DNA of 64,000 bases from contig JAPLLX010000007.1 of assembly GCA_026387335.1 (NCBI GenBank), positions 243-64,242 on the forward strand. The letters run 5' to 3'. The notes below the pieces were generated by a model that was given only the letters and a program-made list of their open reading frames with translations, did no database searches and was not told where the DNA came from. The position numbers and the translations under genes are program-made. The DNA is from Candidatus Omnitrophota bacterium. Its GTDB lineage: Bacteria; Omnitrophota; Gorgyraeia; Gygaellales; Profunditerraquicolaceae. This document shows positions 49,151-61,571 of this stretch, in pieces. The stretch's first letter is position 1, and each line of letters begins with the position of its first letter.

Positions 49151-49502
49151 AATAAAAATAGAGGGGGATTTTAGCTCCGCGCATAACTTAAGGGGTTACA
49201 AAGGCAAATGCGAAGAGCTGCACGGCCATAATTGGAAGGTAGAAGTCATAGTCGCCAGCAATAAGCTAGATAAGATCGGCATGGTTATGGATTTTAAATT
49301 CTTAAAACAAAAACTCCATAGTCTTTTGGAGAAATTAGACCATAAGTACTTAAATAAACTAGCCTATTTTAAGAAGGTGAATCCTACTTCCGAAAATATC
49401 GCCAAATATTTATATGACCGGCTGAAAACCGAAGCCGCGAATCTTTACTCCGTGACTGTTTGGGAGTCGGATAAGGCCAGCGCCACTTATTATGTTGAAT
49501 AA
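49143..49502 (+). CDS. queD: 6-carboxy-5,6,7,8-tetrahydropterin synthase
   Basis: FSSAH.L......C..LHGHNW motif. First gene of the queDCEF cluster. Confidence 0.9.
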   Translation: MYKIKIEGDFSSAHNLRGYKGKCEELHGHNWKVEVIVASNKLDKIGMVMDFKFLKQKLHSLLEKLDHKYLNKLAYFKKVNPTSENIAKYLYDRLKTEAANLYSVTVWESDKASATYYVE

Positions 49503-50142
49503 AAAAGCAGTCGTTCTTTTATCCGGCGGCTTGGATTCAGCCACGGCTTTATATGTAGCTAAAGCAAAAGGGTATAAGTGCCAGTGTTTGATCTTTGATT
49601 ACGGCCAGCGCCACCGTCGGGAAATCAACGCGGCTGTAAAGATAGCCAAGAAGTGCGGTTGCGCCTACCGGATTATAAAAATAAGTTTACCCTGGAAAGG
49701 TTCCAGCCTTTTAGATAAGAAAAAAAAGATTGCGCGTAGCTTTGGGTCGATTATCCCCAATACCTATGTTCCGGGCCGCAATATTATTTTCTTAAGTTTT
49801 GCTCTTTCTTTTGCCGAAAGCATCGGCGCCGCGGCGATATTTATCGGAGCGCACGCGCATGACTATTCAGGGTATCCTGATTGCCGTCCGGAGTTTTTCC
49901 GGGCGTTTAGAAAAGTAGTTTTAACCGGCACAAAAGCGGGAGCGGGCAATAGCGGAATTAAGATTATTACGCCCTTGCTCCATAAGGGTAAAGCGGATAT
50001 CATCAGGTTAGGTTCGCGCCTAAAGGTTCCTTTTGCATTGACCTGGTCCTGTTATCTGGGAGGAAAGAAGCCCTGTGGCAGATGCGATAGCTGTTATTAC
50101 CGCAACAAAGGATTTAAGGAAGCAGGAATAAAGCAAATATGA
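49492..50142 (+). CDS. queC: 7-cyano-7-deazaguanine synthase
   Basis: LLSGGLDS PP-loop and a C-terminal zinc Cys cluster (CGRCDSC). Confidence 0.95.
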   Translation: MLNKKAVVLLSGGLDSATALYVAKAKGYKCQCLIFDYGQRHRREINAAVKIAKKCGCAYRIIKISLPWKGSSLLDKKKKIARSFGSIIPNTYVPGRNIIFLSFALSFAESIGAAAIFIGAHAHDYSGYPDCRPEFFRAFRKVVLTGTKAGAGNSGIKIITPLLHKGKADIIRLGSRLKVPFALTWSCYLGGKKPCGRCDSCYYRNKGFKEAGIKQI

Positions 50143-50810
50143 AAGGAAGAATAGCCGAGGTTTTTGACAGTATTCAGGGCGAAGGCCTGTATCTGGGCGA
50201 AAAACAGATCTTCGTGCGTTTCTACGGTTGTAACCTGGAATGCCGATACTGCGATACAAAATTAAGCAGTTTTATGGAATATGAACCGGAGGAATTATTT
50301 AATGAACTGAAGCTTTACCGCGATAAGTATCATTCAGTATCGTTTACCGGCGGAGAACCGCTTTTACAAAAAGATTTCTTAAGAGAAATATTAAAGTTGA
50401 CCGGGAAGGGCAATTTTAAGAATTATCTTGAGACTAACGGCACCCTGCATAAAGAATTAAAAGAGGTCATAGATTATATTGATATCGTAGCCATGGATCT
50501 AAAACTTCCCAGTTCAACAGGTTTAAGTGATATGTGGGAAGAGCACCGCTTGTTTTTAGAAATCGCCTCTCAGCGGGAAGTTTTTGTCAAGACGGTTATT
50601 TGTACTTATACCAAAGAGGAAGATTTTATAAGGGGCTTACGGCTGATCCGGGAAGCCGCGCAGGAAGCGATTTTGATACTTCAGCTTAACAGCAACGAAG
50701 ACCGGGCTTACTTGCACGATAAATTAGAGACTTTTAAAGACCTCTGCAGAAGAGAGAGGGTTACCTGCTGCGCTGTGGAGCAGATCCATAAGGTGATAGG
50801 AGTAAAATGA
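50139..50810 (+). CDS. queE: 7-carboxy-7-deazaguanine synthase (radical SAM)
   Basis: EVFDSIQGEG, modified radical-SAM cluster CNLECRYCDT. Confidence 0.9.
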   Translation: MKGRIAEVFDSIQGEGLYLGEKQIFVRFYGCNLECRYCDTKLSSFMEYEPEELFNELKLYRDKYHSVSFTGGEPLLQKDFLREILKLTGKGNFKNYLETNGTLHKELKEVIDYIDIVAMDLKLPSSTGLSDMWEEHRLFLEIASQREVFVKTVICTYTKEEDFIRGLRLIREAAQEAILILQLNSNEDRAYLHDKLETFKDLCRRERVTCCAVEQIHKVIGVK

Positions 50811-53876: not shown

Positions 53877-53954
53877 CGGGGGATGGCTCAGTTTGGCTAG
53901 AGCGCTTGCTTTGGGAGCAAGAGGTCGAGAGTTCAAATCTCTCTCCCCCGACCA
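53877..53954 (+). tRNA. tRNA-Pro (anticodon TGG), CCA encoded
   Basis: CGGGGGA / GCTC-AGTTTGGCTA-GAGC / CTTGC-TTTGGGA-GCAAG / GAGAG-TTCAAAT-CTCTC / TCCCCCG-A-CCA. Confidence 0.95.
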
Positions 53955-53979
53955 TATTTGACAATTTGAATAAAGAAAT

Positions 53980-54053
53980 GCGCCTGTAGCTCAAATGGAT
54001 AGAGCAATTGCCTTCTAAGCAATAGGTTGGCCGTTCGATTCGGCCCAGGCGCA
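53980..54053 (+). tRNA. tRNA-Arg (anticodon TCT)
   Basis: GCGCCTG / GCTC-AAATGGATA-GAGC / ATTGC-CTTCTAA-GCAAT / GGCCG-TTCGATT-CGGCC / CAGGCGC-A. Confidence 0.95.
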
Positions 54054-54066
54054 TAAAAATAAAGTT

Positions 54067-55242
54067 ATGAATAAGACTGAAAAAATCTTAGGACTAAGTA
54101 TCATAAGCCTAGCCATTATATTTGGGGCAATATATATATTCTTAAGCGTAGCCGGCAAGTCAATTATCGCTAAAACCCTTGAGTCCTTGACCCATAAGAA
54201 AACGACCGTAGGTTATTTTAACCTTAGCCCGACGCTGGATTTAGAAATCAAGAAGCTGGATATTGACGGCCTGGCTAAAATAGATTCAATTTATATTTCG
54301 CCCAACCTCTTAAGTCTTTTTAGCGGAAAAGTTATCGTTAACAGTTTTAAACTTGTTTCTCCGGAGTTTACTATTACTAAAGCTCCTCCCGCGGTAGTGA
54401 ATGAGCAAAAAACCAGCGTTGACCTTATTTCGGCGGCGCCGCCTACACCGCCTGAGTCTATCCAGCCTAAAGAATTAAAACTCCTGCCGTTTGGTTTTAA
54501 GCGTATCAGGATTGAAAACGGCATAGTTAATTACATTGATCAAAGTATAAGCGCCAACGGAATAAAAATAGTTTTAAAGGATATAAGTTGTAAAATATCC
54601 AACCTTTATTTTTTCCCGCGGCGCGGAATCACTAATTTTGAGTTAAAAGGGAAGATCCCCTGGAGAGAAGGACAGGTAAACGGCCAGTTGGATATTGAAG
54701 GATGGCTTAATTTCTTTAAGAAGGATATGCAGGCAGCTTTAAAGATCAAGGATATTGACGCTATTTATCTATATCCTTATTATTCTAATTGGGTAAATTT
54801 GGAAAAAGCGCGCATAGAAAGGGCCAAGCTCAATTTTTCAGTCGATATTAACGGTTTAAACAATAATATTATCGCGGAATGCCATTTGGCTCTGACCGAT
54901 ATGGTGCGCAAGCCGCTGGAAGCCGGAGAAGCCGAAGAAAAGGCGTCTAAGCTTACGAATAAAGTTTTAGATATGTTTAAAGCTGTTGATCAGGGCAAGG
55001 TGGAATTGAATTTTAGCGTAAAGACTAAAATGGATAATCCGCAATTTGGATTTGGTAATTTCAAAATGGCTTTTGAGGATAAGATTACCAAAGGTATGAG
55101 TTTGGGCTTTAAGCCGGAGAATGCTTTAGTTTTTCCGCTTAAGGTTATGGAAGGCGGAGTCAGAAGTTTCGCGGATTTGACCCGGGCGGCGATTGACGGG
55201 ATCTTTGCCATCGGTAACGGAGTTATCCAATCCGCTAAATAA
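54067..55242 (+). CDS. Membrane-anchored protein, DUF748/AsmA-like (tentative)
   Basis: Single N-terminal TM helix, then a long beta-rich periplasmic region with repeated (I/V)x(I/V)xNG(x)(I/V)x(Y/F)xD-type strands. Family call is tentative. Confidence 0.45.
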   Translation: MNKTEKILGLSIISLAIIFGAIYIFLSVAGKSIIAKTLESLTHKKTTVGYFNLSPTLDLEIKKLDIDGLAKIDSIYISPNLLSLFSGKVIVNSFKLVSPEFTITKAPPAVVNEQKTSVDLISAAPPTPPESIQPKELKLLPFGFKRIRIENGIVNYIDQSISANGIKIVLKDISCKISNLYFFPRRGITNFELKGKIPWREGQVNGQLDIEGWLNFFKKDMQAALKIKDIDAIYLYPYYSNWVNLEKARIERAKLNFSVDINGLNNNIIAECHLALTDMVRKPLEAGEAEEKASKLTNKVLDMFKAVDQGKVELNFSVKTKMDNPQFGFGNFKMAFEDKITKGMSLGFKPENALVFPLKVMEGGVRSFADLTRAAIDGIFAIGNGVIQSAK

Positions 55243-55304
55243 CGGGGCAATAATTTATTAGTAAGATTGCTCTATTTGTGTTAGGCTTTATTTGATAATT
55301 TAAT

Positions 55305-55379
55305 GGTGGCTATAGCTCAATTGGTTAGAGCGTTAGACTGTGGCTCTAAAGGTTGCGGGTTCGATCCCCGTTAGCCACC
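55305..55379 (+). tRNA. tRNA-His (anticodon GTG) with encoded G-1
   Basis: G-GTGGCTA / GCTC-AATTGGTTA-GAGC / TTAGA-CTGTGGC-TCTAA / GCGGG-TTCGATC-CCCGT / TAGCCAC-C. Confidence 0.95.
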
Positions 55380-55434
55380 CATAACTTATTGTGCCACAAC
55401 GATTTACAACATTATTTGAAAATTATAAGAATCC

Positions 55435-57738: not shown

Positions 57739-58026
57739 ATGACTAATGCAATTTCGGTTGAAGTTATAGCTACAAAGATCTTAGAGATAAGAGGTAAAAA
57801 GGTTATGCTGGATAGCGATCTGGCTAAGCTTTATGGCGTAGAAACCAAAGTATTAATTCAGGCTGTAAGAAGAAATAAGGCGCGCTTCCCGCTCGACTTC
57901 ATGTATATACTCACAAGACAAGAGGTTATGAACTTGAGGTCACAAATTGTGACCTCAAGTTGGAGCGGGAGAAGAATTGAGTTATCTTCTTCGTTGTCAA
58001 GCCTACCCAAAAGTGCTATAATTTAA
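57739..58026 (+). pseudogene. ORF6N (KilA-N-related) domain gene, apparently truncated after the conserved LRSQ.VTSSW.GRR segment
   Basis: KVMLDSDLAKLYGVETKVLIQAVRRNKARFPLDFMY.LT..E..NLRSQIVTSSWSGRR matches the ORF6N pattern. The usual continuation (YLPYAFTE...) is absent in all frames. Confidence 0.6.
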
Positions 58027-58142: not shown

Positions 58143-58490
58143 ATGAACGAAATGAAAGAAATTACTGAAAAAATCAAGAAATTTAGAGATGAGCGTGACT
58201 GGATGCAATTTCATGATCCTAAGAATATGGCTGTTTCAATAATACTCGAAGCTTCTGAGCTGCTTGAGCATTTTCAATGGAAAACTACCGAAGAAGTAGA
58301 AAGATATTCAAGGAAAAATCTCGCTGAGATTAAGGATGAAATTGCAGACATAGCCTTATATCTTTTTGAATTAGCCGATAATCTCGGTATCAATTTAATT
58401 GATGCGATGGATCAAAAACTTAAAAAAAATGAAATGAAATATCCGGTGGAAAAAGCTAAAGGAAAGCATACAAAATACAATAAGCTATGA
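58143..58490 (+). CDS. MazG-like all-alpha nucleoside-triphosphate pyrophosphohydrolase (DCTPP1/YpjD-like)
   Basis: F...RDW.QFH.PKN....I..EA.EL.E.FQW......E...EIADI..YL..LA pattern with EExxE/D metal motifs. AAGGAG RBS before ATG 58143. Its stop overlaps the next start (ATGA at 58487-58490). Confidence 0.8.
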   Translation: MNEMKEITEKIKKFRDERDWMQFHDPKNMAVSIILEASELLEHFQWKTTEEVERYSRKNLAEIKDEIADIALYLFELADNLGINLIDAMDQKLKKNEMKYPVEKAKGKHTKYNKL

Positions 58491-60865
58491 GACTCTATGA
58501 GGGGTCAATCAAGGAATTTTCGGAAGACGTAATACATAATCGTATCGCAGATATATTAAAAGATAACTTTCTCGCCTACTATAGAAGACCACCCTCAGAA
58601 CCAGAATATCGTTCCTGGCAGCAGTCACTAAATTTCCTAAATAACGCATTCACGTATTCAGATTTATTGAATAATAAAATAATAGTGGAGTATGAATTAC
58701 CATATTCAACTCGGCGCATCGATGTGTTGGTGTTTGGGAAGAATAATTCAAATAAGGATAGTGTTGTTTTAATGGAGTTAAAGCAATGGTCTAATGAACA
58801 TGTCTATGATTGTGAAAATGAAGGTAATGTAATAATAGATTTTCTTGGTAAGAGAGAGGTAGCTCATCCTTGTTTACAAGTTGAAGGATATCATTTTGAT
58901 TTATTAGATTTTCTGTTGATTTTTAATAGTGATGACGCAGTGCAGCTAAATTCTTGCACATATTGTCACAATTATACTAAGCAAAAAGAAAACATACTCT
59001 CGCTCCCCAAATTCCATAAATTCACCAAGGCTTTTCCTCTGTTTCTCAAAGAAGATGTCAGAGAATTGGGCCTTTATTTGCAGGAGAGATTAAAGAATAG
59101 TGACGGGCTAGAAGTCTTTAGTCGTTTTTTAAATAGCCCTGTTCGACCTTCGAAAAGATTACTAGATCACACTGGCGATATGATTCATAAGCAGCAAATA
59201 TTTACGCTTATTGATGATCAAATCGCTGCTTATAATGCGATTATTAGCAAAGCTAAGCAGTTAACTAAGACAAGTACAAAGTCTATTATTGTTGTAAAGG
59301 GTGGTCCTGGAACAGGCAAGTCAGTAATTGCATTAGAAGTTATGGGCGAGCTGATGCGTCAGGGTAAGGTTGTATATCATGCTACCGGTTCATCCGCATT
59401 TACAAATACATTGAGAAAAATTGTTGGACGTAGAGCATCAAATCTCTTCAAATTCTTTTTTAACTTTACGCAGCACAAGGAGAACGAAATCGATGTTCTG
59501 ATATGCGATGAGGCCCATAGGATTAGGTCGGATAGCAATGATTATGGGGTGCCTTCTAAATTTAAATCAAAAAACCCTCAAATAGATGATCTTATAAGGC
59601 CCGCAAAGTTATCGATATTTTTTATAGATGAATTCCAGATTGTCCGTCCAAAGGAGATTGGTAGTGCTGAATTAATAAAAAGTTCAGCCGCTAAATTTGG
59701 CGTAAATGATAAAGACATTGTAGAATTCGAACTTAGGACGCAGTTCCGTTGTTCCGGGTCAGATGCATATTTACAGTGGTTAGACAAGCTACTGGAGATT
59801 AGAGAGTCTGATATAGATATTTTTGATGCAAAAATGGAGTTTAGAATTTTTGAAACTCCAGTAGATTTAAAAAGAGCAATTGATGAGAAAAATAGACACA
59901 AGGAGAATTTAGCTAGAATTGTTGCTGGTTTCTGTTGGAAATGGAGTGAACCGAATCCAGACGGTTCATTAGTAAAAGATGTTCAAATAGGTGACTTTCA
60001 AATGCCCTGGGAGAAGAAGGATGAATTTTGGAAGTGGGCTACTGATAAGAGTGGTATGGAGCAGGTTGGGACAGTCTATACAGCTCAAGGTTTTGAATTT
60101 GACTATATAGGTGTAATCTTTGGAGACGACCTCGTTTGGCGCAAAGATAAAGGTTGGATTAGTATTCCTGAGAATTCTTTTGATAAACAGGTTTTAAGAG
60201 GGAATCAAAAGCTAACTGATCATCTTAAACATGTTTATAGAGTGTTGATGTCGCGCGCTCATAAGGGAGTTTATTTGTATTTCATGGACAAAGAAACAGA
60301 AATGTTTTTTAGGACTAAGATTGAAAGCAGGGATGGCGCTTTGATGTTTTCTGATATTGTTAAAGAGGATGAAAAGCAGTCTAAAGAGCCAGTGCCGACG
60401 ATCCCGGAAAATCTGCAGTTTAGAGATTATCTCCCTATTTTATCACTTGAAGCGGTTGCAACGTCATTCGGTAAAGAAACACAGGTTGAACAAGAACCGA
60501 TTGGTTGGATCAAGGCCGATATCCCTAGAACTTTGAATAAAGACATGTTTGTTGCGAAAGTGGTAGGTAAGTCAATGGAACCGACTATTCCTGATGGAAG
60601 CTATTGCGTATTTCGCTTTGACAAAGGAGGGACCAGGAATGGATTAGCTGTCCTTGTGGAGTGTCATTTAATTTCTGACCCTGAAACGACGAGGCAGTTT
60701 ACAATAAAGCGGTATAAAAGCGAGAAAGAATATTTTGACGATGGGACATGGAGACATAAGAAAATAATTCTTTCTCCTGATAATAATGATTTTAAAGATA
60801 TCGTTTTGGAAGATGTGCCCGCTATCGAATTTCGAGTTGTAGCGGAGTTTATGTGTGTTTTATAA
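58487..60865 (+). CDS. DUF2075-type protein (N-terminal PD-(D/E)xK-like nuclease plus P-loop SF1-like helicase/ATPase) with C-terminal S24 LexA/UmuD-type peptidase domain
   Basis: N-terminus has SE.E.RSWQQSL and RRIDVLVFG...VLMELKQW (D...ELK). Walker A GGPGTGKS (aa 272-279), Walker B/DEAH ICDEAHR, helicase C-terminal motif TVYTAQGFEFDY. C-terminal aa ~645-792 have VVGKSMEPTIPDGSY (Ser codon 60572-60574) and FTIKRY (general-base Lys). Confidence 0.8.
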   Translation: MRLYEGSIKEFSEDVIHNRIADILKDNFLAYYRRPPSEPEYRSWQQSLNFLNNAFTYSDLLNNKIIVEYELPYSTRRIDVLVFGKNNSNKDSVVLMELKQWSNEHVYDCENEGNVIIDFLGKREVAHPCLQVEGYHFDLLDFLLIFNSDDAVQLNSCTYCHNYTKQKENILSLPKFHKFTKAFPLFLKEDVRELGLYLQERLKNSDGLEVFSRFLNSPVRPSKRLLDHTGDMIHKQQIFTLIDDQIAAYNAIISKAKQLTKTSTKSIIVVKGGPGTGKSVIALEVMGELMRQGKVVYHATGSSAFTNTLRKIVGRRASNLFKFFFNFTQHKENEIDVLICDEAHRIRSDSNDYGVPSKFKSKNPQIDDLIRPAKLSIFFIDEFQIVRPKEIGSAELIKSSAAKFGVNDKDIVEFELRTQFRCSGSDAYLQWLDKLLEIRESDIDIFDAKMEFRIFETPVDLKRAIDEKNRHKENLARIVAGFCWKWSEPNPDGSLVKDVQIGDFQMPWEKKDEFWKWATDKSGMEQVGTVYTAQGFEFDYIGVIFGDDLVWRKDKGWISIPENSFDKQVLRGNQKLTDHLKHVYRVLMSRAHKGVYLYFMDKETEMFFRTKIESRDGALMFSDIVKEDEKQSKEPVPTIPENLQFRDYLPILSLEAVATSFGKETQVEQEPIGWIKADIPRTLNKDMFVAKVVGKSMEPTIPDGSYCVFRFDKGGTRNGLAVLVECHLISDPETTRQFTIKRYKSEKEYFDDGTWRHKKIILSPDNNDFKDIVLEDVPAIEFRVVAEFMCVL

Positions 60866-60875
60866 TTTCTAAATA

Positions 60876-61571
60876 ATGTTTAAAGCCGGTGATGTAATTT
60901 CATACATTGAAATGTGCCAAGAAGAAGGTATAAGTCTTCAAAGAGGAATGAACTTTCGACTTAAAGGAAGACACAGTGTAATATTGATGAGTCTCAGACG
61001 CAATGCTCCATATGCTGATAAGGTTGAAGATAATGGCAAGACATTAATATACGAAGGTCATGATATCCCTCGGTTTAATAGAGCTCAAGATTCAAAGCTG
61101 GTTTCTCAACAAATGCAGAATCCCGGAGGTAGTTTAACTCAGAATGGGTTTTTTTATAAAGCAGCGCATGATTACAAAAATAAGAAGTCTGATGCAGAGC
61201 TAGTCAAGGTATATGAAAAAATTCATTCAGGAATATGGGCTTATAACGGTTTATTTAAACTAGTTGATTCGTGGCAAGAAGAATCGAATAAAAGAAAAGT
61301 ATTTAAATTCAGACTTGAAATAGATAAAATAAATTCTAAGGGCAAACAGCCAGAAAATTTTGATTTGGATCGTAACAGATTAATACCTGCATCTGTAAAG
61401 CTAGCGGTTTGGAAGAGGGATAAGGGGAAGTGTACTAAATGCGGCAGCCCTGATAATTTACATTTCGACCACATAATTCCTTATTCAAAAGGCGGGTCTT
61501 CTTTAGTTGCAGAAAACATTCAGTTGTTATGCGCAAGACATAATATTGAAAAGCGAGATAGGATTGAATAA
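60876..61571 (+). CDS. SRA (YDG)-like domain fused to HNH nuclease: type IV (modification-dependent) restriction endonuclease candidate
   Basis: N-terminus GMNFRLKGRHSVILMSLRRNAPYADKVEDNGKTLIYEGHD and VKVYEKI..GIWAYNGLFKLVDSWQEE..KRKVFKFRLE parallel the SRA blocks (GIHG..GAYSLVL.GGY.DD.D.G....YTGSGG; VRV.R.....YDGIYKVV.YW.E.G..G..V.RY.L.R). C-terminus CTKCG..DNLHFDHIIPYSKGG......NIQLLCARHN is an HNH motif. Confidence 0.75.
   Translation: MFKAGDVISYIEMCQEEGISLQRGMNFRLKGRHSVILMSLRRNAPYADKVEDNGKTLIYEGHDIPRFNRAQDSKLVSQQMQNPGGSLTQNGFFYKAAHDYKNKKSDAELVKVYEKIHSGIWAYNGLFKLVDSWQEESNKRKVFKFRLEIDKINSKGKQPENFDLDRNRLIPASVKLAVWKRDKGKCTKCGSPDNLHFDHIIPYSKGGSSLVAENIQLLCARHNIEKRDRIE

Follow-up and report, generated by a model that had tools for sequence, protein, structure and literature searches.

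What an Omnitrophota cell might gain from a small protein that the public databases name 'HNH endonuclease [Candidatus Omnitrophica bacterium]' (entry P0001, an identical protein) is the question raised by a 64,000-nucleotide (nt) stretch of Candidatus Omnitrophota DNA (assembly GCA_026387335.1, contig JAPLLX010000007.1, positions 243 to 64,242 of the forward strand), hereafter called the window. Its gene, referred to here as the SRA-HNH gene, had been proposed from the letters of the sequence to encode a type IV restriction enzyme in which an SRA reader domain is joined to an HNH nuclease. The domains, the key residues, the predicted fold and the gene neighbourhood all speak for this proposal, and the gene probably encodes a modification-dependent type IV restriction endonuclease directed at 5-methylcytosine (5mC) or 5-hydroxymethylcytosine (5hmC)-type bases, a dependence that we infer from its relatives. 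It belongs to a compact, highly conserved subfamily whose genes are usually solitary. The open reading frame (ORF) was located correctly to the nucleotide as a 231-codon frame on the plus strand, running from ATG to TAA, and every motif string quoted for it is present in the translation. These are SVILMS (residues 34-39), YADKVEDNGKTLIYEGHD (46-63), WAYNGLFKLVDSWQEE (121-136), and RKVFKFRLE (140-148) in the N-terminal part, and CTKC (186-189), HFDHIIPYSKGG (196-207), N214, LLC (217-219), and HN (222-223) in the C-terminal part, an agreement that is far beyond chance.

The search with hidden Markov models of the SAD_SRA and HNH families, which had been suggested as a check of the proposal, was carried out. 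It gave two matches above the Pfam cut-offs for the C-terminal part, HNH (E 4.6e-9) and HNH_5 (E 4.4e-7), and a SAD_SRA (PF02182) match over residues 31-148 with an E value of 6.7e-7 and a score of 29.6 bits, for which the gathering score is 30.7. Both SAD_SRA and HNH are matched by all 36 homologues in an alignment (A1) of proteins that are 65-85% identical to the query, and the best SAD_SRA match among them has an E value of 1.2e-9. A profile made from A1 matched the SRA domains of SUVH5, SUVH9, and SUVH6 in the PDB, with E values from 5e-4 (SUVH5) to 0.06. The AlphaFold2 monomer model of the protein has a mean predicted local distance difference test score (pLDDT) of 73.5 and a predicted template modelling score of 0.70, and the core strands of the SRA part reach pLDDT values of 80-94. 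In the Foldseek ranking for this model, SRA-DNA complexes of SUVH5 come first (E 3e-7), followed by KRYPTONITE, UHRF1/UHRF2, ScoMcrA, and MspJI. The structure-comparison values are 12.3 for SUVH5, 11.9 for KRYPTONITE, 11.3 for both LpnPI and TagI, 11.2 for UHRF1, 10.9 for SUVH6, 10.3 for ScoMcrA, 10.0 for MspJI, 9.0 for SUVH9, 8.7 for both AbaSI and AspBHI, 8.4 for SauUSI, and 7.7 for PvuRts1I. The protein has both an SRA profile match and structural similarity to known SRA domains, and its N-terminal domain adopts in the model the fold that defines the reader of SRA-HNH type IV enzymes. The SRA/YDG block pattern originally claimed for this region is confirmed, with the one qualification that the eponymous motif reads YNG (Y123-N124-G125).

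The residues that would form a pocket for a flipped base could be read from the profile alignment with SUVH5, whose PDB chain spans residues 362-528. Y46 and Y59 correspond to SUVH5 Tyr416 and Tyr428, which stack on the flipped 5mC or 5hmC; D48 corresponds to Asp418, which forms a hydrogen bond with the Watson-Crick edge; Q22 corresponds to Gln392 of the thumb loop, which occupies the vacated space opposite the orphan guanine and pairs with it; and G24 corresponds to Gly394, a backbone contact of the thumb loop (for all these roles, PMC4740795). All five residues are invariant across the 36 aligned sequences, and the predicted pocket is complete, with two aromatic walls, a carboxylate, and a thumb residue. 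An equivalent arrangement is found in TagI, where Tyr55, Tyr67, and Asp58 make up the pocket, and the authors of that work state that the carboxylate favours cytosine derivatives and excludes thymine and purines (PMC6212794).

The C-terminal part carries, on the same polypeptide as the SRA domain, what is by its motifs an intact HNH nuclease domain of the beta-beta-alpha-Me type. The Pfam matches span residues 186-230, and the putative zinc ligands (C186, C189, C219, and H222) as well as the predicted catalytic set (D198-H199, N214, and N223) are all invariant in A1. The linker between the two domains is the one region of the family alignment that is rich in indels and poor in conservation, with pLDDT below 50 at residues 155-162. 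The H-N-N arrangement of this nuclease resembles that of the HNH domains of Cas9 and IscB, which accounts for sub-threshold matches to IscB (28.7 bits against a cut-off of 175) and Cas9d (20.9 against 375) in NCBIfam. Membership in either family was rejected because the HNH part alone matches, and an RNA-guided nuclease of these kinds was also rejected because the protein is 231 amino acids (aa) long and Pfam shows no RuvC-type domain. PADLOC has no named defence system for the SRA-HNH protein; its HNH part matched type II restriction endonuclease models and, weakly, PDC-M39B.

On the basis of the conserved residues and the homologous structures, a mechanism can be proposed in which the N-terminal SRA domain would bind duplex DNA and rotate a cytosine modified at C5 (5mC and/or 5hmC) out of the double helix. 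This extrahelical base would be sandwiched between Y46 and Y59, with D48 reading its Watson-Crick edge so that cytosine is selected, while Q22 of the thumb loop would plug the gap in the helix and pair with the orphan guanine. The zinc-stabilised HNH domain, held on a flexible linker of ~20 residues, might then nick or cut the same DNA at a short and variable distance, with H199 as the presumed general base and D198 and N223 as the likely metal ligands. An HNH-mediated dimer is probable, by analogy with TagI. Foreign DNA carrying the modification would be destroyed, and the host would escape damage through the absence of the cognate cytosine methylation from its own DNA, which is part of the proposal.

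Several points weigh against this assignment. The SAD_SRA score of the query falls 1.1 bits short of the Pfam gathering score, the YDG motif is replaced by YNG with N124 invariant in A1, and the HNH half of the AlphaFold2 model is of low confidence. Neither TagI nor ScoMcrA was detected at E <= 1 by phmmer with the single protein or by the family profile against the PDB, so that the predicted function is carried over across ~18% identity. The check for host methyltransferases was a crude, motif-level test of 64 kb. Precedents also call for caution, since the SRA domain of HHPV4I appears inactive (PMC10101028) and Sco5333 cleaved DNA in vitro with Mg2+ whether it was methylated or not (PMC4333417); an SRA domain alone is no guarantee of a response to cytosine modification.

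These two precedents also bear on a different explanation, according to which the SRA domain reads another target, for example a different flipped base, a hypermodified cytosine of greater bulk, N4-methylcytosine, or DNA damage, or has lost the reading of modifications altogether, in which case the protein would be an HNH nuclease or toxin that is non-specific or directed elsewhere. The YNG motif would fit this explanation, as would two pocket positions, both invariant in A1, at which the protein departs from its structural relatives. E60 stands where TagI (Thr68) and SUVH5 (in the aligned IYTG) have threonine, and H62 stands where SUVH5 has Gln431, so that the preferred substituent could differ from theirs. 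The aromatic walls, the carboxylate, and the thumb glutamine are nevertheless kept without exception, a combination that according to the TagI work selects a cytosine derivative (PMC6212794), and nothing like the winged helix of HHPV4I, which is an additional domain for reading DNA, is present in the 231 residues. We consider a change or loss of target to be improbable and retain a 5mC/5hmC-type, modification-dependent enzyme as the preferred reading.

A word-indexed search returned more than 7,900 significant matches, and the best 120 of these are nearly all full-length, mostly 228-240 aa, and 66-85% identical to the query. In a scan of one genome per species, the genomes of at least 582 bacterial and archaeal species encode a relative; the 80 loci with the best matches, which are the genome loci referred to below, encode proteins 59-71% identical to the query, and the subfamily as a whole ranges from 59 to 85%. 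The bacterial sources of these 80 are Dehalococcoidia, Omnitrophota, Nitrospirota, Acidobacteriota, Planctomycetota, Desulfobacterota, and a Mycobacterium isolate, and the archaeal ones are Bathyarchaeia and Micrarchaeota. In a library clustered at 50% identity, 138 representatives were found at E <= 1e-30, many of them fragments, and such a small number of clusters indicates a family that is compact and strongly conserved in spite of its wide spread. Identities of 59-71% from Omnitrophota to Bathyarchaeia and Mycobacterium point to frequent horizontal transfer together with strong constraint. Because TagI and ScoMcrA escape detection by sequence, with no detectable homology over both domains, the family is treated as a separate SRA-HNH subfamily outside the TagI/ScoA3IV clade.

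The same high identity over very distant lineages and unrelated contexts, together with the few clusters, could also be read as the mark of a selfish, homing-type HNH element that spread and was conserved through its own mobility rather than through host defence. Against this, the window locus has neither repeats on its flanks nor a conserved target for insertion, the copies at the genome loci do not interrupt other genes, and a base-flipping reader of modified cytosine has no role in homing. The family is also practically absent from phage records, plasmids, and IMG/VR contigs, where only matches to the HNH domain and one partial family match were found. An origin as a homing element therefore seems remote.

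Two of the genome loci carry a frame broken into two ORFs, one of 72+156 aa (L022, 10001-10690) and the other of 88+108 aa (L029, 10001-10702); both appear to be pseudogenes or sequencing frameshifts. A supposed eukaryotic copy, 70% identical to the query (P0022; locus L087 in GCA_900198705.1, the 23-Mb record FZPS01000029.1), was rejected as such because its neighbours are bacterial: PglZ, a helicase, AgrB, MobA, and a recombinase. Rather than a eukaryotic chromosome, this record is probably an assembly that was concatenated or derived from a metagenome.

Type IV enzymes are typically encoded by solitary genes (PMC6765204), and the surroundings of the family were examined in this respect. No obligatory partner was found across the 80 loci, where the flanking genes are mixed and many are housekeeping genes such as those for tRNA synthetases and CoA transferases. 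Upstream, only two neighbours recur: a small HTH_3 protein (6 of 63 loci) and a DUF2075-S24 protein (4 of 63). The earlier remark that the window shows no methyltransferase agrees with a crude motif scan of its ORFs of at least 100 aa, in which neither PCQ nor [DNS]PP[YFW] was present. The C5-methyltransferase triple (PCQ, ENV, and FxGxG) is absent from the window ORFs and, in a motif scan extending 10 kb to each side, from 1.22 Mb around the 80 homologous loci; DNA methyltransferase families are not enriched among the Pfam-surveyed neighbours of these loci. At motif level and over the scanned loci, no cognate cytosine methyltransferase is thus paired with the gene, and the mixed neighbours and missing methyltransferase motifs fit a solitary type IV enzyme.

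One lineage has a more regular arrangement. In Candidatus Tritonobacter lacicola and related contigs (L001-L003 and L005; genes at 7795-11736 in L001), the stop of a 67-aa HTH_3 protein gene abuts the SRA-HNH start, and an N6_N4-type methyltransferase (a faint match) and a NotI-like endonuclease are encoded downstream, so that the type IV gene adjoins a type II restriction-modification system. The HTH_3 gene upstream of SRA-HNH possibly encodes a controller protein. Within the window itself, a QueC gene and a radical-SAM (QueE-like) gene are adjacent and point to the biosynthesis of 7-deazaguanine (preQ0). They most likely serve tRNA queuosine, and no sign of a DNA-modification (dpd) cluster was seen beside them in the window.

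Table 1. Positions, in window coordinates, of the SRA-HNH gene, its predicted domains and key residues, and features of the surrounding region.
Feature	Position	Strand	Remark
SRA-HNH gene	60876..61571	+	ATG-to-TAA ORF, 231 aa plus stop; Pfam SAD_SRA and HNH
SRA (SAD/SRA, YDG-type) domain, putative modified-cytosine reader	60876..61325	+	residues 1-150
Q22	60939-60941	+	predicted thumb residue
Y46	61011-61013	+	predicted pocket wall
D48	61017-61019	+	predicted carboxylate reading the cytosine edge
Y59	61050-61052	+	predicted pocket wall
Variable interdomain linker	61326..61385	+	residues 151-170
HNH (beta-beta-alpha-Me) nuclease domain	61386..61568	+	residues 171-231
D198-H199	61467-61472		predicted catalytic residues
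MazG-like all-alpha nucleoside triphosphate (NTP) pyrophosphatase gene	58143..58490	+	first gene of the probable operon; Pfam MazG-like E 4.9e-20
DUF2075/SLFN-g3 helicase-like ATPase gene	58487..60865	+	792 aa; Pfam SLFN-g3_helicase E 1e-83
LexA/UmuD-type S24 peptidase domain of the DUF2075 protein	60440-60865		residues ~650-792; Peptidase_S24 E 1.3e-6, above cut-off
Best sigma-70-like promoter match	57994..58022	+	11/12, TG extended; consensus scan
Low-GC island	57.7-61.6 kb		
ORF6N-domain protein gene	57739-58026		95 aa
Perfect palindrome	57931-57961		15+15 nt, inside the ORF6N gene
tRNA genes Pro-TGG, Arg-TCT, and His-GTG	53877-55380		
QueC and radical-SAM (QueE-like) genes	49492-50810		

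At the window locus, SRA-HNH is preceded on the same strand by genes for a MazG-like protein and a DUF2075 protein (Table 1). The stop of the MazG-like gene overlaps the DUF2075 start by 4 nt and SRA-HNH starts 10 nt past the DUF2075 stop, a spacing from which the three genes can be taken as probably forming an operon with SRA-HNH third and last. The best promoter-like site lies upstream of the MazG-like gene, in a region where the number of such sites is no higher than in shuffled sequences, and the same consensus scan found no comparable site between the three genes. SRA-HNH is also the last gene of an island with a GC content of 33-38%, compared with 42.5% for the window, a difference suggestive of acquisition by horizontal transfer. 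The island borders showed neither a tRNA gene nor convincing direct repeats; the three tRNA genes of this region lie amid housekeeping genes, at least 2.3 kb upstream. At the island edge, the ORF6N-domain protein (E 5e-25) gives a strong match to the PADLOC candidate family PDC-S05 (E 3e-28), and with 95 aa against profiles 177-306 long it is probably a truncated remnant; a perfect palindrome lies inside its gene.

In comparisons with the PDB, the MazG-like protein matched an archaeal pyrophosphatase (4qgp, E 5e-25) and the mammalian dCTP pyrophosphatase 1 (DCTPP1, RS21-C6; 6sqw and 2a3q, E 1.4e-18). The DUF2075 protein has an N-terminal PD-(D/E)XK-like motif (D79 and E97-x-K99), a Walker A motif at residues 272-279, and a DEAH box at 341-344, all invariant in 20 homologues, as is the Ser696-Lys741 dyad of its S24 domain. 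An AAAG-like stretch directly precedes the S24 domain in the family consensus and reads AVATS in the window copy; these features suggest self-cleavage as a possible switch. Many DUF2075 relatives are ~618 aa long and have no S24 domain, and PADLOC gave weak matches of the window protein to PDC-S41, AbiO, and Nhi.

The wider context of the pair was surveyed in 84 DUF2075 loci (L088-L171). Of the 72 loci with room for one, 62 have a MazG-like gene upstream of DUF2075, in 55 cases directly adjacent to it, and the two look like a conserved and apparently undescribed two-gene module; in a literature search, no paper turned up that names both DUF2075 and MazG. In the gene slot after DUF2075, SRA-HNH is the commonest single occupant, present at 5 of 54 metagenome loci (~9%) with gaps of -4 to +6 nt, and it follows both long DUF2075 forms and short forms without S24. 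The order SRA-HNH, MazG, DUF2075 occurs in one locus. Other genes downstream of DUF2075 encode HNH_2, PDDEXK_1, Mrr_cat, RadC, and HAD proteins (alignment A5; L088 and L089), and in L088 a DpnI-like gene lies two genes past DUF2075. Nucleases, modification-dependent kinds among them, often occupy this slot.

Seen from the side of the nuclease, DUF2075 lies directly upstream of SRA-HNH at 4 of the 80 genome loci and also in two further contigs (P0003 and P0004), of which P0004 was rejected as an independent context because it is syntenic with the window (fumarase, RNase PH, Ham1, and DUF748). The MazG/DUF2075/SRA-HNH trio also occurs, with different flanks, in other Omnitrophota and in Planctomycetia genomes. 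In a neighbour-joining tree, the DUF2075-linked SRA-HNH genes are scattered over at least six separate places, and the divergence of the two genes is incongruent: relative to the window, the locus L079 has 83% identity in DUF2075 but only about 60% in SRA-HNH, whereas L008 has 43% and 69%, respectively. The association has accordingly arisen or been exchanged repeatedly. Collectively, the link of SRA-HNH to MazG-DUF2075 is real, recurrent, and facultative, and concerns a minority of loci; it may stem from a shared mechanism or from a site in a defence island where genes preferentially insert.

The first of these two possibilities leads to an alternative in which SRA-HNH is no autonomous restriction enzyme but works as part of a three-gene system that targets phages carrying modified cytosine. 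The MazG-like protein would hydrolyse modified dCTP, the DUF2075 protein would act as a nuclease-helicase with a LexA-like, self-cleaving S24 switch and would process or degrade DNA, and SRA-HNH would mark or nick modified DNA and so load or trigger the helicase-nuclease. The tight spacing of the genes, the recurrence of the trio with different flanks, the repeated formation of the link with long and short DUF2075 forms alike, and the leading place of SRA-HNH among the occupants of a slot near which HNH_2, PDDEXK_1, Mrr_cat, and DpnI-like genes are also found all agree with such a system. DCTPP1, to which the MazG-like protein is similar, hydrolyses 5-methyl-dCTP (PMC4491611), which makes a shared theme directed against modified cytosine attractive as an inference. 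Weighing on the other side, only 4 of 80 SRA-HNH genes have a DUF2075 neighbour, so that the nuclease clearly functions alone, and only ~9% of the MazG-DUF2075 modules carry SRA-HNH; moreover, defence genes cluster for reasons besides a shared mechanism, the literature does not connect DUF2075 with MazG, and the substrate of the MazG-like protein is a predicted one. We regard a dependence of SRA-HNH on its neighbours as unlikely. The same holds for the fuller proposal of an undescribed three-gene module, in which SRA-HNH would be the DNA-sensing arm, MazG would drain modified dCTP, DUF2075-S24 would be an effector triggered by damage or RecA*, and the 3' nucleases (SRA-HNH, Mrr, DpnI-like, and HNH_2) would be interchangeable; this remains a rather doubtful, if testable-looking, extension of the autonomous type IV enzyme favoured here.

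The window protein shares its architecture with the characterised SRA-HNH type IV enzymes TagI, ScoA3IV (Sco5333), and TbiR51I. Its link to TagI and ScoMcrA is a structural one, with a structure-based identity to TagI of 18%, and in sequence its SRA domain is closer to that of plant SUVH proteins and its HNH domain closest to the IscB/Cas9 type. ScoMcrA further differs in having an extra sulfur-binding domain and a length of at least 500 aa, compared with 231 aa here. The characterised group comes mainly from GC-rich Actinobacteria and Proteobacteria (PMC6765204), unlike the present subfamily, whose members come from Dehalococcoidia, Omnitrophota, Bathyarchaeia, and further lineages that are for the most part uncultured. 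The SRA domains of SUVH5, KRYPTONITE, and UHRF1 are the best matches in sequence and structure, and SUVH5 shares the thumb glutamine and the Tyr/Asp/Tyr pocket; these eukaryotic proteins, however, read chromatin and carry SET or RING domains in place of a nuclease, and the window protein has YNG and, as judged from the alignment, no sign of a UHRF1-type NKR finger. Among other modification-dependent enzymes, MspJI, LpnPI, and AspBHI as well as PvuRts1I and AbaSI combine an SRA-like domain with a PD-(D/E)XK nuclease instead of HNH and differ in domain order and oligomeric state, while EcoKMcrA has an N-terminal reader domain unrelated to SRA.

For a protein whose database name, 'HNH endonuclease', covers only its C-terminal half, the annotation could be upgraded to what is predicted to be a full methylcytosine-directed restriction apparatus, and the protein represents a very large, uncharacterised SRA-HNH subfamily. 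Its SRA domain, being nearer to that of plant SUVH proteins than to those of the characterised bacterial enzymes, is relevant to the proposal that the 5mC readers of eukaryotes originated in bacteria. A small and conserved enzyme of this kind could also serve as a reagent for epigenetic mapping. Finally, the recurrent coupling to a DCTPP1-like pyrophosphatase and DUF2075 suggests a multi-layer defence against phages with modified cytosine.

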